A stretch of 40,110 nucleotides of DNA, taken from the IMG/VR virus record IMGVR_UViG_2897369580_000002, one strand, 5' to 3'. The notes under the pieces are model-generated. The model worked only from the letters and a program-made list of their open reading frames with translations. It searched no databases and was not told where the DNA came from. Made by a program: the position numbers and the translations under genes. Shown piece after piece: positions 6,076 through 34,675 of this stretch; positions within the stretch are counted from its first letter, which is position 1, and every line of letters starts with the position of its first letter. The stretch is from a virus. Taxonomy: Duplodnaviria; Heunggongvirae; Uroviricota; Caudoviricetes.

Positions 6076-6106
6076 GGTTTGCAATCACCAAATGGAGTGC
6101 TTATAT

Positions 6107-6121
6107 TTACCTTTGCGGTAA
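6107..6121. promoter_or_regulatory. palindrome TTACC-N5-GGTAA (copy 2)
   Basis: TTTACCTTTGCGGTAAA at 6106-6122. Confidence 0.55.
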
Positions 6122-6390
6122 ATTTACAACGCACTCCTCTTGTGCCATAGTAATCGAGCACTGGCAAAATCCAGTGCCGGGATTGGCGTCCCGGATTACT
6201 AAAAGGCGCATTCACCGCGCAAGCGGTTTTTTTATGCGTATAGCACGGCCACATTCGTATTATGGTGGGCTGTGTGGGGGCACCGAAAGGTGCGCCGGGT
6301 CCTTTTAGCCGGTTACGCCAACCCTGCACAGTTCACCACCAACCGATTGGCGTCGGTAGTGGTGATTAACCAGACTAAAAGGTAACCACT

Positions 6391-7086
6391 ATGACAGCTA
6401 CAAAAAGCACGTCCATTTTTTCTTTCGAATCCCAAGCCGATATACGGGTAATCGTCATTAATGGTGAGCCATGGTTTATCGCTTCAGATGTTTGTCGGGC
6501 TATAGGCATAGCAAACCATCGAGATGCTGTTCGAAAACTTGATGATGATGAGAAGGGCGTCGCTTCAACCGACACCCCTGGCGGTGAGCAAGAATCGATC
6601 ATCATCTCCGAGTCAGGCCTCTACACACTGATCCTCCGCTGCCGCGACGCAGTGACACCAGGCACTATCCCCTACCGCTTTCGTAAATGGGTTACAGGTG
6701 AGGTTCTTCCTCAGATCCGCCGCACCGGAAGTTACATTAAAAACTCGCTCCCGCAGGAAGAACGCATAAAGATGGTTGCCGACCAGGTAGCCAACGCCAC
6801 GGCGTCAGCAGTAATGCAGGCGATGAAGATAGAGAACAAAACCTACAGTGCCCCACTGAAGCCCGGCTACCGCAGCCTGATTCATTCGCCGTCTGGTGTT
6901 CTCGGCCTGACGGAGAACTCACTGCTGATGAATCTGCTGAACCAGTTACAGGAAGACGGGCACGATGTATCGGGCGCGGCGGCGGAGCTGACCACCATGT
7001 TCTGCTACATCGTCGGTGTGAGCAAATGCCTGCGTGATATCCAGACCCACGCGGAGTACATCAACGACAAAGCAGGATTCTTCTGA
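6391..7086 (+). CDS. Bro-N domain antirepressor (Ant-like)
   Basis: N-terminal Bro-N signature (FSFESQADIRVIVINGEPWFIASDVCRAIG); RBS AAGGTAACC; C-terminal domain shared with the upstream small protein. Confidence 0.75.
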   Translation: MTATKSTSIFSFESQADIRVIVINGEPWFIASDVCRAIGIANHRDAVRKLDDDEKGVASTDTPGGEQESIIISESGLYTLILRCRDAVTPGTIPYRFRKWVTGEVLPQIRRTGSYIKNSLPQEERIKMVADQVANATASAVMQAMKIENKTYSAPLKPGYRSLIHSPSGVLGLTENSLLMNLLNQLQEDGHDVSGAAAELTTMFCYIVGVSKCLRDIQTHAEYINDKAGFF

Positions 7087-7158
7087 CGGGCGGCGGCACA
7101 GGGATGTGCCTTTAAATAATTCTGTACAGATTGCAGACCGGGGGTGAATAGCGTACTA

Positions 7159-7173
7159 TTACCTTAAAGGTAA
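7159..7173. promoter_or_regulatory. palindrome TTACC-N5-GGTAA (copy 3)
   Basis: ATTACCTTAAAGGTAAA at 7158-7174, upstream of the 7216 gene. Confidence 0.55.
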
Positions 7174-7215
7174 ACCTGTTTTTATTTTATACCTGTAACT
7201 TACCGGAGATTAAAG

Positions 7216-7542
7216 ATGACAAAACTTGGATTCGTGATGAGAGGTCCGGTAAGAAGCGGAACTCATGCAAAGCGTAGCAAGAGTCGTATTTTTACTGGTA
7301 AGGTTGTAGCACGTAAATCAGCTATTGGCTCGTTCAATAGTGAAAATGCGGCATTGCGCCATATTTTTATCAGCACAAAGCCAAGAGCATCCGCTGATGT
7401 GCATACAATGTCTATTCCTATCACAAAGAATATCAAGCGGATAAAAAAGCTCTCATCTGCAGAATCAAAAGAGATATCTTTCCGCCAGCTTAACTCATTA
7501 GAAACGCATATGAAGGAAGAGGAATTCGATGTTTTTGAGTGA
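7216..7542 (+). CDS. hypothetical basic protein (AT-rich cargo operon, gene 1)
   Basis: ATG with RBS GGAG; Lys/Arg-rich; visibly lower GC than surrounding phage DNA; overlaps next gene. Confidence 0.5.
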   Translation: MTKLGFVMRGPVRSGTHAKRSKSRIFTGKVVARKSAIGSFNSENAALRHIFISTKPRASADVHTMSIPITKNIKRIKKLSSAESKEISFRQLNSLETHMKEEEFDVFE

Positions 7543-8041
7543 GTATAGCGGGAAGGTTATACCTACTGGTGAGTTTAAAACTGATGACTTTCTGATTTCG
7601 CTAAAAGATGCTTTTAAACAACACTGGCGTCATGGTCATCATCCTGATCTGGGAAAAGATACTCTTTTTGAAAGACCAGACGAAGTATTAGGCTTCCATC
7701 TCAGAAAGGTTCATGTCAATATTGGTGAATATGCATCATATTCATACTCATGTACTGAACAGTGTTGGGATGAGTGGTCATATGGATTGATTGATGAACA
7801 AGGAAATTACAGGCCAAAACCAACCAGTAACGCATATCTCATATATGCAGTCAATGAAATAAGAGATGCAGCCTTACTAGCTTATTGGGACCCGCCCGCA
7901 CACACCAAAGCTAACGCAAAAGTTTGGATGGATTCCGTATTGAATTTCACAAAATTATTTCATGAACGAACGAATACAGCTCCACTTAGTAGAAATGTTT
8001 ATCCGTGGGATTATTCGTACAAATCCAAAAAGCCTGCATAG
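7529..8041 (+). CDS. hypothetical protein (AT-rich cargo operon, gene 2)
   Basis: ATG with RBS AAGGAAGAGGAA; start overlaps end of gene 1 (coupled); aromatic and His-rich; no recognisable motif. Confidence 0.5.
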   Translation: MFLSEYSGKVIPTGEFKTDDFLISLKDAFKQHWRHGHHPDLGKDTLFERPDEVLGFHLRKVHVNIGEYASYSYSCTEQCWDEWSYGLIDEQGNYRPKPTSNAYLIYAVNEIRDAALLAYWDPPAHTKANAKVWMDSVLNFTKLFHERTNTAPLSRNVYPWDYSYKSKKPA

Positions 8042-8122
8042 TAGTTTTTTATGGACGAAACAAAAGTCAGTGCTACACTCATTGACGCCACATTGAGGTG
8101 GCTTATAGATGGAAATTTCACA

Positions 8123-8284
8123 ATGAAAAAAGCATTTGCTGCACTGTTCGTTTTGTTGTCTCTGGTAGCTTCAACTCAGGCCTTTGCCGGTCGTTGTCAG
8201 CACGACAGCGACACTGCTGCTGACGGCTCCCGCTGCGGTGGGCGTTCTGCGGATTCCCGCCCGGGTGGCGGTGGCATTCGTTAA
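8123..8284 (+). CDS. small secreted Gly/Ser/Arg-rich peptide with two Cys
   Basis: Internal ATG gives MKKAFAALFVLLSLVASTQAFA signal peptide then ~31-aa mature peptide; weak RBS; alternative TTG/ATG start at 8051 in ORF track. Confidence 0.35.
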   Translation: MKKAFAALFVLLSLVASTQAFAGRCQHDSDTAADGSRCGGRSADSRPGGGGIR

Positions 8285-8306
8285 AAACAAGGCCGCGAAA
8301 GCGGCC
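8281..8306 (-). terminator. rho-independent terminator ending the minus-strand structural transcript
   Basis: GGCCGC-gaaa-GCGGCC hairpin, followed on the minus strand by TTGTTTTTAA. Confidence 0.6.
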
Positions 8307-8307
8307 T

Positions 8308-8319
8308 GTGACATGTCAC
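8308..8319. repeat. 12-bp palindrome GTGACATGTCAC (copy A)
   Basis: Perfect palindrome; identical 12-mer also at 26008-26019 and 28282-28293. Confidence 0.7.
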
Positions 8320-8320
8320 G

Positions 8321-8881
8321 CTACATTGATATATGATTCATAAAGTAGCTTAAAGATTTACTTCCCAGAAAAGAAATTTCTTTTCCTGGATATGTCGCAA
8401 TAATTGAGCATGACTTATCCCCGTTAGAGGTAACAAATCCTGAATAACCTACTTGTTCTTTACCATTTTGTTGCTTGGCTAAAAAGTAGAGGTAGCTTAT
8501 CTTTTTGCCCTCTGGGTAAAACTCTGCCAAACCAGTATCGGTGATTGAATATTTTATTCTCCCGCCTTGAGTAACGTTTTCCATCTCAAGTTTAGCTATG
8601 TCTTTTCTGTTGTATTCAGCATTGATTTTCCTTTCGAAATCAATGTTGTTTTCAAATGAGTAGGAAGCAACAGTCTGAATAGATGGGAACACGTTTATCT
8701 GGATGCCCCCACAGTCGGCACAGGTATAAAGGTATGAATCAGATGGAATCCCCATAAAAGAAAACTGAGTTACCTTAAATTTATCGCTATCTCCAAAGTA
8801 TTGAAGTTCGCATTTAACATTTTGCCCTGCAAAAGAAAATGCAGACATCAATATTGAAACAAAAAATATAATTGCCTTCAT
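8321..8881 (-). CDS. secreted protein of unknown function (AT-rich, end of structural operon)
   Basis: ATG; signal peptide MKAIIFFVSILMSAFSFAG; AT-rich coding; directly follows the 849-aa internal protein. Confidence 0.55.
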   Translation of the reverse strand: MKAIIFFVSILMSAFSFAGQNVKCELQYFGDSDKFKVTQFSFMGIPSDSYLYTCADCGGIQINVFPSIQTVASYSFENNIDFERKINAEYNRKDIAKLEMENVTQGGRIKYSITDTGLAEFYPEGKKISYLYFLAKQQNGKEQVGYSGFVTSNGDKSCSIIATYPGKEISFLGSKSLSYFMNHISM

Positions 8882-8883
8882 TA

Positions 8884-11433
8884 TTATTTACCTAGCATGA
8901 ACTGCGATGGTGGGATCAGAAAGTCGTTCCCCTGCTCACGCTCAACACGGCGCTGATAACGCTCAAGAGAGCCTGGGTCAAGGGCATCTTGTATCCGGTT
9001 CAATATTAAACCATTCATCGCCGTACGAAGCCAGAACACGTTGAGGAATGGCGTATTGTCAAGTGCCGTGCGATACCAGTCACCCAAATCTGCATCCCCT
9101 CTCGTGGTCTGCTGGAGCAGCGTGATAATGCTGTCAGCGTTCGATGCTGCTGGCCCCATTAGCGACGTAACCGGCCCGGCCCCCATGCGGTTGACCTCAC
9201 CAAACATGAAGTCACCCAAGATGCCAAGACCGCCCCCCTGAGATGCGGCTGCGAGAAACGTCTTGGCATCTGCCGGGCGTGGTGTTTGCCCTTTCAGCAT
9301 GAGTTTTGACTGCATGGAGATATAACCAAACATAGTCGCCCAGACAAAGAGGTTTGCAGCACCAAGGAAAGCCCCCTTCCCGTTACGTAGCAGCGCATTC
9401 GTCAGCGATCCGGTTTTCGACTCACCAAGCCCAGCAGGAATATAACCACGCCCGAATACTTCGCGTCCTAGTACGTTCTGCATGAAGCTTGCAGTGAACG
9501 ATTTGTACTGACCAGCGAATCGTATTGCTTCCCCAGCCACCGTTCCTGGCACCGTGCCCATCTTCATAAACGCCTGCGTGCGATCGCCAGGCTCTGACAT
9601 GGCGATATTCAGACGGTCAAGGATGTAGCCGCGCAACTGCCCTTCCAATTGATCGCGTGCGTCAGCGATAGCGCGCTGCGTTGGTTTGATCCCCTTACTC
9701 TCTACATAACCGGCAATCACTTCGTCAGGCACGCCGCGGATGCCGCTGGTCGTCATGAACTTACGACCTTCGCTATCGGCCATGTCCATGTTGCGAAAAA
9801 TTTCCCACTCACGTTCGCCAATACCGTGCAGATCCAGCACGCGTCGCAGGTCTTCCGGTAGCCGCGCATGAGACTGGTCAGCATTCTTTGCAAGCCAGTT
9901 GGTTATCATCATGGCGTTGCTGTTGCGACCGCTCTCGGTCCAGAAGTTCATGAGGTTGTACTTAAAGAAAAGCTGCTGCGCGCGACCAAGCTTTCCATTC
10001 AGCGTGTCATCACCAGATATGCGCCGGATGATTTCCTGCGTCATGGAGTCGGAATAAACTCCGATAGAGGAAAGGATCTCTTTCTGCTCCGCGCTGTTGT
10101 AACGCGTGAAGCGGCCTCTCATAGCACCAAGCAACGCCTGCATAAAATTCTGCCCTTGGTAGCGCATCTCGGTAGCGGCGATAGGCACGTCGTTAAACGA
10201 TGAGATTACCGCGCCACCAAGTTGGCTCATACGCAACCAGCCGCGTACAGCCGCCGACGCATTGGCCCAGCCTACGCTGCCAGGAATATTTAGCGAGCCG
10301 TCAACCTGCGGCATTACGGTACGGTTAATGCGACGCACCTTCGTCATGTAGTCAGCCAACGCTGCCGGTCTTCCGGATTTGCTGATATCTTCAGCAATGG
10401 CGTCCGTCAGGTACTTAAACATGTTCTGTGGGTTAGTGCCCAGTACGCGCATCATGCCCGTTGTGCGGGCAGCGCTGTTTAAGCCACCAAACAGCGCTTC
10501 TCGCAGGCTGCCGGTGCCGAATTGCTGGTTGTACTCGTGCCACGAGATACCATCTTTGAAGTGCAAAATTCGCTCTTGGCTGGCGCGTTTAGCTGCGTTC
10601 GCCGATCCCTTAAAGCCATTCATCCAATCGGGCTTTTCAGATGTAAGATGCACGCCGGAAGCCAGCCCGTTATAAATGTTACGCATGAACTGCTCGCGGT
10701 CAGCCACGCCGTCAAAAGTGCGCTCATCAAGGCGCGGGAGAATAGCATTTCGCCATGCTTCATAACCTGCGGCGCGGATCTTCATGATGTCGTGTGACTG
10801 GCGCACTATATAGCCCGGCTCTTTGCGTATCCATGCCCCGGCGCGGTTCTCATCAATGCGCGCAGTTTCCTGCCATTTCATGATGATTTGTGCAGCGCTT
10901 ACGGATTGCTTTGTCATACCGTCAGTTGACTGCCCGCGCCCTATGCGCCACATTGCATCGGCAATTTCCCGGTCATTGCTGCCGCTGGCGATGAATTGCA
11001 CCAGCCCGGCACGGTCAAAATCGTAGTTGATACCGGAATGATACTTGCCGCGCAGTTGCGCCACCTCCGAAGATACCGACCGGCGGGCGCCGGTACGCGC
11101 ATCGTTGCGGCCAACCAGCATTGCTTCAAGCCCGATATCCGGGCGGTCTTTCCAGATAGTACGAAGCTCTCTAAGTCGTTGTGCGGCAATACGGGCGTCG
11201 ATTGCCTTATTGCGAGCCTCAATCTGTTTTGCCAGCATATCGGCATTGCTCAGTTCTTCCGCTGCGCGCATCGCGGCCTCTTCCAGAGACAGCGCCTCAT
11301 TGGTCGCCAGAATTCGCCTAGTGGTGTCGTTCATGTCACGCACCAGCGACTCCATCTCATCGGAAGAAAGCTCGCGACCAGCGGCAGCATTTACACTGCG
11401 CTCGCACTGCGTCAAAAATTCGTTTGCTGCCAT
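8884..11433 (-). CDS. large internal virion / ejection protein
   Basis: ORF-track start at 11436 is GTG; ATG at 11433 with RBS GGGGGA overlaps the stop of the upstream gene (ATGA); large mostly helical protein in the structural block. Confidence 0.6.
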   Translation of the reverse strand: MAANEFLTQCERSVNAAAGRELSSDEMESLVRDMNDTTRRILATNEALSLEEAAMRAAEELSNADMLAKQIEARNKAIDARIAAQRLRELRTIWKDRPDIGLEAMLVGRNDARTGARRSVSSEVAQLRGKYHSGINYDFDRAGLVQFIASGSNDREIADAMWRIGRGQSTDGMTKQSVSAAQIIMKWQETARIDENRAGAWIRKEPGYIVRQSHDIMKIRAAGYEAWRNAILPRLDERTFDGVADREQFMRNIYNGLASGVHLTSEKPDWMNGFKGSANAAKRASQERILHFKDGISWHEYNQQFGTGSLREALFGGLNSAARTTGMMRVLGTNPQNMFKYLTDAIAEDISKSGRPAALADYMTKVRRINRTVMPQVDGSLNIPGSVGWANASAAVRGWLRMSQLGGAVISSFNDVPIAATEMRYQGQNFMQALLGAMRGRFTRYNSAEQKEILSSIGVYSDSMTQEIIRRISGDDTLNGKLGRAQQLFFKYNLMNFWTESGRNSNAMMITNWLAKNADQSHARLPEDLRRVLDLHGIGEREWEIFRNMDMADSEGRKFMTTSGIRGVPDEVIAGYVESKGIKPTQRAIADARDQLEGQLRGYILDRLNIAMSEPGDRTQAFMKMGTVPGTVAGEAIRFAGQYKSFTASFMQNVLGREVFGRGYIPAGLGESKTGSLTNALLRNGKGAFLGAANLFVWATMFGYISMQSKLMLKGQTPRPADAKTFLAAASQGGGLGILGDFMFGEVNRMGAGPVTSLMGPAASNADSIITLLQQTTRGDADLGDWYRTALDNTPFLNVFWLRTAMNGLILNRIQDALDPGSLERYQRRVEREQGNDFLIPPSQFMLGK

Positions 11434-25029: not shown

Positions 25030-25044
25030 TTACCTTTCAGGTAA
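25030..25044. promoter_or_regulatory. palindrome TTACC-N5-GGTAA (copy 4)
   Basis: ATTACCTTTCAGGTAAC at 25029-25045; TTGACA hexamer at 25008-25013 just upstream. Confidence 0.55.
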
Positions 25045-25366
25045 CTAAAGAGCTCATTCCGGCTACTAACCTGACTGGCTTGTCGTTAAATTGAACAGGT
25101 GGAGTGAGATTTTATTTTGAGCAGTACGGCGTATGGCACATGCGCCGATAGCGGTCTGGATACGTTTAAGGGGCACCCTCCCTTGCTCGGGCAAACGAAC
25201 CAGGTAGCCGGAATGTGCAAGTCGAGCGGTTTTATTCCGCGCACGGGGATTCACCATCCTGGCGATTCGGTGTGACGCCTCGGAAGAGACGAGAGTACAA
25301 CGATGAGAGCATTTATGGAGCCGCGACAAAGTGTGGCGCCTTAACAGGCTAAGTGCTCTCAGCGTT

Positions 25367-25443
25367 GTGGTATTAGCTCAGTTGGACAGAGCAACCGCCT
25401 TCTAAGCGGTTGGTCGCAGGTTCGAATCCTGCATGCCACGCCA
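25367..25443 (+). tRNA. tRNA-Arg (anticodon TCT), phage-encoded
   Basis: Hand-folded cloverleaf: acceptor GTGGTAT/ATGCCAC, D-arm GCTC..GAGC, anticodon stem ACCGC/GCGGT with loop CTTCTAA, T-arm GCAGG-TTCGAAT-CCTGC, discriminator G, encoded CCA. Confidence 0.9.
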
Positions 25444-25486
25444 GAATCACGCCTAAGGACCGTGATACCAGAAGTTCCAGGTGCTT

Positions 25487-25528
25487 GGCGGTGATGGTTT
25501 CCCTTGAAGGACTATCACCGCCCTTTTT
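25487..25528 (+). terminator. rho-independent terminator downstream of tRNA
   Basis: GGCGGTGAT ... ATCACCGCC stem followed by CTTTTT. Confidence 0.6.
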
Positions 25529-25606
25529 ACAGCAGGACGCCATTGCGATGACTTCATGCTGTAAACCCGTACAGCCACGGAAGGCATAACTCATTGCTTC
25601 CAGTTC

Positions 25607-25630
25607 GCCCGGTTCGCCGGGCATTTTTTT
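25607..25630 (+). terminator. terminator/attenuator hairpin immediately upstream of the 25642 gene
   Basis: GCCCGG-ttc-GCCGGGC followed by ATTTTTTT; RBS AAGGTGAG begins right after the T-run. Confidence 0.5.
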
Positions 25631-25641
25631 AAGGTGAGATT

Positions 25642-26013
25642 ATGAACGACCAGCAAATCGAAAAAGAAATCGTTGAGAAAGGCAAAACGGCACCGCGCGT
25701 TACGCCAGACCATATCGAAGGCATTATTGCTCAGGAGGCATATTTCACAGCAGAAGATGGTGCCTTTGGCAAAGCCATAAAAGCGAAACATACTGGCGGA
25801 GAGGTAAACTACCAGCCGCACGAATCACTTTCTCTGCTGACGTTCTGCGTCCTGGTGCTGCGCAACGGCTTCACCGTCACCGGAGAGAGCGCCTGTGCAA
25901 GCCAGGAAAACTTTGATGCAGAAATTGGTCGGAAGATTGCCCGGCAGAATGCTGTAAACAAAATCTGGATGCTCGAAGGTTACTTGCTGAAGCAGAAGCT
26001 AAGCGAGCAATAA
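25642..26013 (+). CDS. hypothetical phage protein (cargo gene between terminase and portal)
   Basis: ATG with RBS AAGGTGAG; 123 aa; opposite orientation to flanking late genes; own terminator. Confidence 0.6.
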   Translation: MNDQQIEKEIVEKGKTAPRVTPDHIEGIIAQEAYFTAEDGAFGKAIKAKHTGGEVNYQPHESLSLLTFCVLVLRNGFTVTGESACASQENFDAEIGRKIARQNAVNKIWMLEGYLLKQKLSEQ

Positions 26014-33570: not shown

Positions 33571-33801
33571 TCATGAGTAGAAGAAGTATGCCAGTTCTGC
33601 TTTTGAGCGCAACCATTGTCTTGTTTTACAGGCTTTAAAAAGCCCATTCATCAATACTTTACCTGGCATTTTGCGCTTACCTGTTAAGTGAGTCTGGATA
33701 TAGTGACTCGTCGTTCCGGCTTCCTGTGCGAAGGCTTCACGCTCATCCGGAGTAAGTGCAAGCCAGTGCTTTTTGAAATCGAAATGTCCGTTATCGCTCA
33801 T
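33571..33801 (-). CDS. Cro-like small HTH regulator (first gene of rightward/early-replication operon)
   Basis: 76 aa, divergent from the repressor gene; HTH-like segment EAFAQEAGTTSHYIQTHLTG. Confidence 0.5.
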   Translation of the reverse strand: MSDNGHFDFKKHWLALTPDEREAFAQEAGTTSHYIQTHLTGKRKMPGKVLMNGLFKACKTRQWLRSKAELAYFFYS

Positions 33802-33955: not shown

Positions 33956-34540
33956 ATGAAAAGTATCCAGGACGTCCGCAGGCAAAATCTCAACGACTTG
34001 ATCGACCGTGAATTCAATGGTGTTCAGACGCGGATGGCAGAAAAACTTGGAACTCAGGCAAATCTGGTAAACCGCTGGGCTCTTGGCAAGAAGGTTATCG
34101 GCGACCAGGTTGCGCGAAAAATTGAAGCTGCCGCCAATAAACCACGTAACTGGCTTGATATCGATCGCTCGCTTTCTCAGGAAGGTTTTCAGCCTGTCGG
34201 CCCAAGCGACATTGGTCAGCTGGCGGCTCACAACCTGGAACGCTGGATGAGCGAAAGCCGCGACCTTTCAACACAGGGAAAACTTCACCGCGCATCCGGC
34301 GTCGCCCAGGTGACAATCAGCCGCCTGTTAAACAATGAGGTCAGCGTTTCCATTTCCACCCTGGAGAATGTTGCATCCGCATTCGGGCGTCACGGCTATG
34401 AATTACTGATTCACCCGCACGACCCTGCGACCATCAACTATGACCGCTCGCGCTACGCATTGTTACCCGAAACCGAGAAAGCAAAGATCGAAAGTTATAT
34501 TGAATTTGTCATCAACCAGAACGAAAAAAACAAACAATAA
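33956..34540 (+). CDS. prophage repressor candidate with tandem HTH domains, no autocleavage domain
   Basis: Two HTH-like regions (QTRMAEKLGTQANLVNRWALGKK and GKLHRASGVAQVTISRLLNNEVSVS); no Ala-Gly / Ser-Lys peptidase S24 signature seen; own terminator. Confidence 0.55.
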   Translation: MKSIQDVRRQNLNDLIDREFNGVQTRMAEKLGTQANLVNRWALGKKVIGDQVARKIEAAANKPRNWLDIDRSLSQEGFQPVGPSDIGQLAAHNLERWMSESRDLSTQGKLHRASGVAQVTISRLLNNEVSVSISTLENVASAFGRHGYELLIHPHDPATINYDRSRYALLPETEKAKIESYIEFVINQNEKNKQ

Positions 34541-34632: not shown

Positions 34633-34659
34633 TTGACATCAAACCAAATACGCATAATT
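34633..34659 (+). promoter_or_regulatory. sigma70-like early-left promoter
   Basis: TTGACA (34633-34638), 15-16 bp spacer, CATAAT/ATAATT (34654-34660); operator-like palindrome begins at 34660. Confidence 0.55.
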
Positions 34660-34660
34660 A

Positions 34661-34675
34661 TTACCTCAACGGTAA
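34661..34675. promoter_or_regulatory. palindrome TTACC-N5-GGTAA (copy 12), overlapping early-left promoter -10/+1
   Basis: ATTACCTCAACGGTAAC at 34660-34676. Confidence 0.6.

Follow-up and report, generated by a model that had tools for sequence, protein, structure and literature searches.

What is encoded by the two small overlapping genes that lie in AT-rich DNA between the antirepressor gene and the structural genes of a tailed-phage genome, and when would they be expressed? The locus occupies positions 7216–8284 of IMG/VR record IMGVR_UViG_2897369580_000002 (Caudoviricetes), a stretch of 40,110 nucleotides that is referred to below, in its entirety, as the window. The initial annotation, made from the sequence alone, had singled it out as the best candidate in the window for an undescribed system. 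Our analysis points, with a probability of roughly 70%, to a bicistronic toxin-antitoxin (TA)-type cassette, a YafO-type toxin and its cognate antitoxin, which occupies a variable cargo slot in a prophage of the epsilon15-like (Uetakevirus) type and is probably controlled by the prophage repressor.

The window is a Uetakevirus (epsilon15/phiV10-like) prophage. Its whole 40 kb is annotated as a prophage in E. coli ATCC BAA-2469, and bases 7100–8900 are 100% identical to the chromosome of that strain. Its gene order starts with an integrase and RecT/exonuclease, continues with a helix-turn-helix (HTH) regulator and the replication genes, followed by those for terminase, portal, capsid and ejection proteins, and closes with a tail fibre and a lysis cassette. 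The nearest phage records are the Uetakeviruses phiv142-3, TL-2011b, phiV10, ZX5 and EC.W1-9.

The YafO-family toxin and its partner

The open reading frames for the 108-aa and 170-aa proteins overlap by 14 nt. Both are on the plus strand, opposite to the structural operon in the window's orientation, and lie between the Bro-N antirepressor gene (6391–7086) and the 3' end of the ejection-protein genes. In this respect open reading frames and annotation agree with the initial description. Each gene has its own Shine-Dalgarno sequence (GGAG at 7205–7208 and AGGA at 7520–7523), and that of the 170-aa gene, together with its start codon, sits within the final codons of the 108-aa gene (…KEEEFDVFE). 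Prophages of E. coli, Citrobacter and Serratia, and others from metagenomes, contain the pair with the identical 14-nt overlap, and all loci there with a homologue of the 108-aa protein (type A) keep both the pairing and the overlap. Two small, co-directional, translationally coupled and co-inherited genes with the antitoxin gene upstream represent the gene architecture of type II TA systems. Both genes are under purifying selection, which is strong for the 170-aa gene (dN 0.12–0.28, with dS saturated) and is reflected in dN/dS values of 0.2–0.6 for the 108-aa gene, where dN and dS are the nonsynonymous and synonymous substitution rates. The AT-rich composition noted earlier is genuine for the pair: the GC content of 7216–8041 is 0.397, against a prophage mean of 0.503 with a standard deviation of 0.041 in 826-bp windows, and less than 1% of the windows are so low. 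It does not extend to the gene for a small secreted peptide that had been assigned to the same operon (GC 0.574).

The 170-aa protein, correctly described as rich in aromatic residues and histidine (15% aromatic, 8 His), is a divergent, enlarged YafO-family toxin of the RelE/ParE superfamily with the BECR fold. In RefSeq it is already called 'type II toxin-antitoxin system YafO family toxin', so that the system is not an undescribed one, and the remark that none of the proteins carries a recognisable motif does not apply to this gene. Pfam family PF13957 (YafO_toxin) matches it at a sub-threshold score, with an E-value of 9.5e-4 over profile positions 7–100 of 101. An exhaustive hidden Markov model (HMM) search of 1.84 billion representatives yielded only 55 clusters of relatives, from which 41 full-length representatives were used as the toxin family set. 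PF13957 is matched by 26 of these 41 at E≤0.01 (best E 6.8e-23), and a precomputed match exists for a relative, P0009, that is 76% identical to the 170-aa toxin. In hhalign, the 41-sequence profile aligns with E. coli K-12 YafO at a probability of 95.4% and an E-value of 1.7e-8 (residues 20–145 versus 13–128); a profile restricted to close relatives gives 20%.

The GKD/GRD, HxH and AH/PH motifs line up in the alignment of the family profile with YafO. Residues G36, G42, D44, P50, H62, S100, Y106 and H125 are invariant or nearly so in the 41 sequences, and the conserved positions correspond to G39-R40-D41, H62 (HIH), Y88 and H109 (PH) of YafO (numbering from the translated gene). The residues common to the 170-aa toxin and E. 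coli YafO are Gly42-Lys43-Asp44, His62, Tyr106 and His125. Positions conserved across the family are candidate catalytic residues. The modelled structure has the alpha/beta fold expected of RelE relatives. Compared with the 132 residues of K-12 YafO, the toxin described here has a Trp/Cys-rich insertion of about 17 residues (approximately within 65–98), modelled at low confidence (predicted local distance difference test, pLDDT, 52–65), and a C-terminal extension of about 25 residues, neither of which is found in YafO. YafO has been placed among the BECR-fold RelE/ParE toxins, with the antitoxin gene preceding the toxin gene (PMC11980606), and is an mRNA endoribonuclease whose ribosome dependence is disputed (PMC8546651). 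Similar activity is thus likely, judging by homology, for the 170-aa protein. The pair resembles YafN-YafO of E. coli K-12 in the homology of the toxin over its whole core, including the GRD/GKD, HxH, Y and PH/AH motifs, and in the antitoxin-to-toxin order of overlapping or abutting genes (PMC11980606). Toxins of the structurally characterised type II systems of the same superfamily, HigBA, RelBE and DinJ-YafQ, are only 8–18% identical to it in sequence.

Could the toxin instead be inert or domesticated, its neighbour an unrelated small basic protein, and the pair selfish or neutral cargo devoid of RNase activity? The sub-threshold Pfam score, the large insertion and C-terminal extension relative to YafO and the low confidence with which the insertion is modelled would fit this explanation. 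Against it, the family-invariant G42, D44, H62, Y106 and H125 are all retained and aligned with E. coli YafO, the toxin is under strongly purifying selection, and overlap and pairing are strictly kept. We consider it very improbable.

A structure search of the BFVD database with the toxin gave no match at E≤0.001. Weak matches to lectin, DUF1319, HxsA3 and NlpE profiles were far under the cut-offs and were taken as chance. A further long YafO-like subfamily, also of 170 aa and 23–25% identical in the alignment, occurs in plasmid-like contexts with MobA and Rep3 (loci L046–L053). The gene upstream of it is unrelated, encodes 73 aa and does not overlap the toxin gene, which represents another swap of partners in the toxin family.

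For the 108-aa protein, the absence of a recognisable motif was confirmed: it matches no known family. It is strongly basic, as had been stated (isoelectric point, pI, 10.6), and bipartite. Residues 1–78 have a pI of 12.0 and are predicted to be disordered, residues 79–108 have a pI of 4.5, and residues from about 73 to 108 make up an acidic C-terminal helix module. The low-confidence AF2 model is a disordered chain with one helix at residues 89–107 (pLDDT 70–81 in the helix). Homologues at 41–51% identity keep the N-terminus MTKLGFVMRG…KRRK, the C-terminus …ISFRMLNSLEDRMKEEEFDxFE and the 14-nt overlap with the toxin gene, while the middle varies. Partners of the more distant long YafO-like toxins, collected from 31 viral contigs and phage records, have unrelated N-terminal parts: one type has 113 aa and starts with MSKIVALIA…, others have 139–183 aa, and that of TL-2011b has 59 aa. 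Every one of them ends in a similar module of about 36 residues overlapping the toxin start. This module, running to the C-terminus, is the sole region aligned by hhalign, with E-values of 5.5e-5 against the 139-aa partner of EC.W1-9 and 9.8e-4 between type A (108 aa) and type B (113 aa). The closest parallels are the pairs gp45/gp44 of TL-2011b and WYA78249/WYA78250 of EC.W1-9, both Uetakevirus-type genomes. Their toxins are 33% and 47% identical, respectively, to the 170-aa toxin, and their partners share the C-terminal motif of the 108-aa protein, but not its N-terminus. In TL-2011b the pair shares its slot, promoter and operator with the one described here, whereas that of EC.W1-9 sits in another slot.

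A conserved toxin-proximal tail carried on interchangeable N-termini is as expected for the neutralising segment of an antitoxin. The 108-aa protein is therefore probably the cognate antitoxin, of an undescribed type, which would neutralise the toxin through its C-terminal helix. Unlike the Phd/YefM-type YafN, it is basic rather than acidic overall and has no predicted folded DNA-binding domain: no such domain was detected by Pfam, NCBIfam or PDB profile searches, no folded N-terminal domain appears in the low-confidence model, and a Phd/YefM Pfam match was obtained for none of 12 partner proteins. By contrast, the antitoxins of HigBA, RelBE and DinJ-YafQ have ribbon-helix-helix, HTH or Phd DNA-binding domains and are autoregulating; neither a domain of this kind nor a cassette-specific operator was found here. 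To the eye, the C-terminus of the 108-aa protein (…SAESKEISFRQLNSLETHMKEEEFDVFE) resembles the YafN tail (…SAARLEEITRRAEQYLNDMTDDDFNDFKE). The likeness is compositional, and homology was rejected since about half of 5000 shuffled sequences scored at least as well as YafN against an HMM of the C-terminal module. An AbrB-like N-terminus (MTKLGFVMRG…) was likewise rejected, with no Pfam support at E≤1.

One toxin, P0017 (locus L056, 122–953), is chimeric. Its residues 1–125 are of the type found in the window and its last 45 or so residues of the type associated with the 113-aa partner, while its own partner is of the window type. This hints that the partner tail recognises the toxin core and not the C-terminal helix; the source is a single 1.1-kb metagenomic contig, possibly an assembly chimera.

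A putative backbone promoter with a phage-wide operator

The region upstream of the pair contains a putative sigma-70 promoter, assigned by inspection, and the palindrome TTACCTTAAAGGTAA, located 43 nt upstream of the start of the 108-aa gene (Table 1). Upstream of homologous pairs in eight divergent loci, the half-sites TTACC and GGTAA are kept while the 5-nt spacer is variable, a signature of a protein-binding site. The palindrome TTACC-N5-GGTAA is found throughout the window, at 14 sites with at most one mismatch (10 of them exact) versus 0.53 expected. At three promoters the geometry is shared, the final T of the -10 hexamer being the first T of the operator. From its distribution, the palindrome probably marks the regulon of a repressor. 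It also precedes every plus-strand accessory unit, and most related loci have two to five copies.

Alignment of the slot with phiv142-3, TL-2011b and EC.W1-9 shows near-identity through the hairpin behind the Bro-N gene, the promoter and the operator, followed by full divergence directly after GGTAA(A). Promoter and operator are therefore parts of the phage backbone, behind which the TA cassette is loaded as an exchangeable unit. This arrangement fits a partner without a DNA-binding domain. A cassette-specific antitoxin operator was accordingly rejected, the palindrome being phage-wide and part of the conserved flank. Antitoxin autoregulation found no support either, the sole upstream palindrome being this backbone operator. 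A candidate LexA box (CTG-N9-CAG at 7122–7136) was rejected because of its wrong spacing. In contrast to this phage promoter and phage operator, YafN-YafO is encoded in the LexA-regulated dinB operon (dinB-yafNOP).

The probable prophage repressor is a 194-aa protein (33956–34540, plus strand) with an HTH_3 domain at residues 106–147 and no S24 peptidase domain. Lacking the latter, induction is presumably antirepressor-driven, in agreement with experiments on the related phage ZX5 (PMC9782041). The arrangement of the operators suggests that the pair probably belongs to the regulon of this repressor, possibly also of Cro, with little expression in the lysogen and transcription alongside the early genes upon infection or induction.

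This arrangement bears on an earlier suggestion, namely, that the cargo encodes toxin-antitoxin, defence or exclusion functions, of which the first is borne out. As to the others, the pair might act as an anti-phage defence or exclusion system expressed in the lysogen, in which phage infection would cause the antitoxin to be lost and the YafO-type RNase to arrest translation (abortive infection). In favour of this, the TA pair belongs to the RelE superfamily and occupies a low-GC accessory slot of variable content in the prophage, defence roles have been reported for RelE/ParE-superfamily modules (PMC11980606), variable cargo nearby in related prophages includes Rap1a and secreted proteins, and a single operator might allow basal expression. 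Nevertheless, with the operator on a backbone promoter, covering -10 and +1 as at the PL-like promoter, and no promoter of the cassette's own, silence in the lysogen is predicted, and the expression required for defence or exclusion is doubtful. Neither protein matches a PADLOC model (no match in PADLOC-DB v2 at E≤1 for any of the four proteins encoded at 7216–8881), and we found no experimental evidence for such a role in the literature searched. We regard this explanation as unlikely.

Distribution of the pair and its possible roles

The intact pair is present at at least 99% identity in 68 of 5426 complete E. coli genomes, versus about 500 with the flanking backbone. A scan of species-representative genomes revealed one locus only, and a third homologue search added only about 12 sequences, all distant. 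Between the same flanks, phiv142-3, TL-2011b and EC.W1-9 carry different cargo: small open reading frames, another YafO-like pair, or a pair consisting of a 108-aa protein and DUF2335. The low GC content and the different cargo between identical flanks support horizontal acquisition of the pair, as implied by its earlier designation as a moron. As regards autonomous expression in the lysogen, that designation is weakened: the pair has no promoter of its own and relies on a backbone promoter with a repressor-type operator. Some related prophages hold a second, divergent YafO-like pair in another slot (L021, 6518–7087, minus strand; L025, 6394–7005, minus strand; L014, 3592–4507, plus strand). 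In EC.W1-9 (L014), the slot used here by the YafO pair is occupied by a 108-aa protein paired with a DUF2335 membrane protein.

The pair could alternatively have a function in phage development instead of being a TA system in the sense of addiction or defence. An immediate-early RNase would remodel or shut off host or early phage mRNA during lytic growth, and the 108-aa protein would time or buffer its action or, by means of the basic region, would be a partner that binds RNA or the ribosome. The promoter and operator geometry common to early promoters, the adjoining C4/isrK-Bro-N antirepressor unit and the very basic first 78 residues of the 108-aa protein (pI 12) are compatible with this possibility, as is the same genomic position across genera, more typical of a lineage gene than of a sporadic moron. 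However, the plaque-forming relatives phiV10, phiv142-3 and ZX5 are devoid of the pair, which is therefore dispensable. Among complete E. coli genomes, only the 68 mentioned above carry it, versus about 500 with the flanking backbone, and the literature searched offers no precedent. A developmental role thus seems quite unlikely.

Homology, fold, gene architecture, conservation and the distribution and geometry of the operators are results of our analysis; the mechanism proposed on this basis for the TA cassette would be as follows. The 170-aa toxin would cleave mRNA and halt translation, whereas the acidic C-terminal helix module of about 36 residues in the 108-aa protein would bind and neutralise it. 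The cassette, without its own promoter or operator, would be plugged directly behind the conserved backbone promoter. The prophage repressor would shut the pair off in the lysogen, and transcription together with the early genes and the antirepressor would occur upon infection or induction. Biologically, such a pair may serve either early translation modulation or exclusion/addiction.

Several observations weigh against this interpretation. On its own, the 170-aa protein reaches 19.7 bits on PF13957, under the 25-bit gathering cut-off. Its pairwise BLASTP comparison with K-12 YafO is not significant, an NCBIfam search with it gave no match, and PDB sequence searches with both family profiles returned nothing relevant; YafO itself has no solved structure with which to compare it. 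The 108-aa protein has no relative in Pfam, NCBIfam, PADLOC or PDB, does not align with YafN in BLASTP and reaches a probability of 0.2% against it in hhalign, and its AF2 model has a pLDDT of 56 and a predicted template modelling score of 0.20. The promoter at 7131–7159 matches the consensus at 7 of 12 positions, which is below the threshold of the promoter scan. Finally, tight CI repression is awkward for a classical TA system with a labile antitoxin because toxin would be freed in new lysogens. As tight repression would poison these cells, either repression is leaky or partial, or the stabilities of the two proteins are not the textbook ones and the pair is not a textbook addiction module. 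Gating by the repressor speaks against abortive infection by a module that is expressed constitutively. An early function in lytic growth, a switch that responds to loss of the repressor and a cassette that is simply selfish would all fit such gating.

A more specific form of the TA cassette is conceivable, although we consider it doubtful. The pair would be a YafO-type RNase module that is no longer autoregulated and has become wired to the CI/Cro operator, with an antitoxin defined only by its C-terminal module of about 36 residues. Its expression would then be confined to conditions in which infection, induction or attack by a foreign antirepressor relieves repression, and it would act as an immediate-early device for translation shut-off or as a dead-man switch penalising loss of the repressor. 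In that case the partner would also represent a new antitoxin family, and Uetakeviruses would be seen to have a swap-in cargo slot behind a repressor-controlled promoter.

Surrounding features and implications

The third gene of the supposed cargo operon was predicted correctly as far as its product is concerned: it encodes a protein with a signal peptide and two cysteines. The gene, however, more likely starts at 8123 (53 aa), where a plausible Shine-Dalgarno sequence is present and where PGAP also places it, than at 8051 (77 aa), an ATG with no such sequence in front. Its DNA is 98–100% identical in phages without the YafO-like pair, and thus it belongs to the backbone and not to the cargo. 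Many Uetakeviruses and around 500 E. coli genomes keep the gene at this level of identity. The mature part of the protein is rich in Gly, Arg, Asp and Ser, and phrog_14503 is labelled 'membrane associated protein'. The terminator that follows (8290–8307) closes the convergent late operon and probably also stops the plus-strand unit. At the end of the late operon, the gene at 8321–8881 (minus strand, GC 0.357) encodes a 186-aa protein that begins with a signal peptide (phrog_11983, without a Pfam match). At least 80% of 7100–8900 is present in only six of 5426 complete E. coli genomes, and therefore this gene is a rarer, separate moron.

On the other side of the pair, the hairpin at 7095–7110 is kept in phiv142-3, TL-2011b and EC.W1-9; the terminator scan made no call there, and the hairpin is possibly a weak terminator between the antirepressor unit and the pair. 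Further upstream, between the operator-bearing promoter at 6079–6107 and the Bro-N gene, the leader contains two plus-strand Rfam matches above the gathering score, the Hfq-binding small RNA isrK (6158–6233, 77.9 bits) and C4 antisense RNA (6258–6343, 77.7 bits). This leader looks like the RNA-controlled antirepressor units of the P1 immI and Gifsy-1 IsrK type. In phage P1, one repressor reportedly acts at many scattered operators, one of which controls an antirepressor operon starting with C4 antisense RNA (Lobocka et al. 2004). The 14 scattered operator-like sites of the window and the C4 and isrK-like RNAs in front of the Bro-N gene are reminiscent of this C1 regulon and of immI (c4-icd-ant). 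Unlike in P1, the operator here is a symmetric 15-bp palindrome, and the repressor belongs to the HTH_3 type and has no relationship to C1. The TA system of P1 itself, phd-doc, is autoregulated and not repressor-gated. A plus-strand insert between the terminase and portal genes (25030–26013) is apparently another accessory unit under a TTACC-N5-GGTAA operator, located at 25030; it encodes tRNA-Arg (25367–25440) and an N4 Gp49/Sf6 gp66-family protein (25642–26013; PF13876, E 1.8e-34).

Table 1. Positions in the window of the gene pair, its regulatory elements and related sites
Feature	Position	Strand	Identification or remark
Hairpin GGCACA-GGGA-TGTGCC then TTTAAATAATT	7095–7110	+	Directly after Bro-N stop; read from sequence
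Putative sigma-70 promoter TTGCAG, 17-nt spacer, TACTAT	7131–7159	+	Read from sequence; conserved phage backbone; -10/operator geometry shared
Operator palindrome TTACCTTAAAGGTAA (TTACC-N5-GGTAA)	7159–7173		Overlaps last -10 base and +1 region; upstream of 108-aa/170-aa pair
108-aa putative antitoxin	7216–7542	+	PHROG phrog_5933 (function unassigned there), RefSeq WP_000163643.1
Conserved C-terminal module of about 36 residues, ending ...ISFRQLNSLETHMKEEEFDVFE	7432–7539	+	Only region common to partners with unrelated N-termini; proposed toxin-neutralising segment
170-aa YafO-family (BECR/RelE-fold) toxin	7529–8041	+	RefSeq WP_000479990.1, PHROG phrog_1651
53-aa signal-peptide protein, mature part about 31 aa, 2 Cys	8123–8284	+	phrog_14503 and phrog_3117; conserved backbone gene downstream of cargo slot
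GC-rich hairpin terminator AGGCCGC-TTTC-GCGGCCT and T-run	8290–8307	-	Terminator scan; 'terminator' annotated at matching phiV10 sequence
Promoter TTGCAA-17-TATATT	6079–6107		-10/operator geometry shared
Promoter TTGACA-17-AATTAT	34633–34661		-10/operator geometry shared
Operator sites	5494, 8505		One mismatch each
Operator site	5726		Upstream of 85-aa gene
Operator site	6107		Upstream of Bro-N unit
Operator site	25030		Upstream of plus-strand tRNA-Arg/gp49-family unit
Operator sites	28172, 28190		Start of small terminase gene
Operator sites	31517, 31579		Between replication gene P and next gene
Operator sites	33838, 33886 (and degenerate copy 33869)		Between 194-aa HTH regulator gene (33956–34540) and divergent cro-like gene (33571–33801)
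Operator sites	34598, 34661		Just downstream of repressor gene, at strong leftward-operon-type (PL-like) promoter

The pair is a variant of a known system, and our current understanding is little changed by it: neither the toxin family and its fold nor the gene order is new, and antitoxins are known to be exchanged among toxin families. In the literature searched, we found no description of the 108-aa partner family with its C-terminal module, of the long phage-borne YafO subfamily or of the repressor-controlled backbone placement, and no paper mentioning the accessions or PHROGs of the pair. If our interpretation is correct, the small YafO family (about 1K Pfam entries, no solved structure) would gain a phage-borne long subfamily. 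There would also be an antitoxin type that comprises little beyond a basic, disordered chain and a neutralising helix at its C-terminus. The pair would then exemplify a TA cassette placed under the control of a prophage repressor and not of its own antitoxin. Low-GC TA pairs in prophages are usually read as defence expressed in the lysogen, whereas the promoter architecture here argues for expression only on derepression. The map of TTACC-N5-GGTAA sites, which links cI/cro, the PL-like promoter, the antirepressor unit, the tRNA/gp49 unit and the cargo slot, provides a practical handle on regulation in Uetakeviruses.

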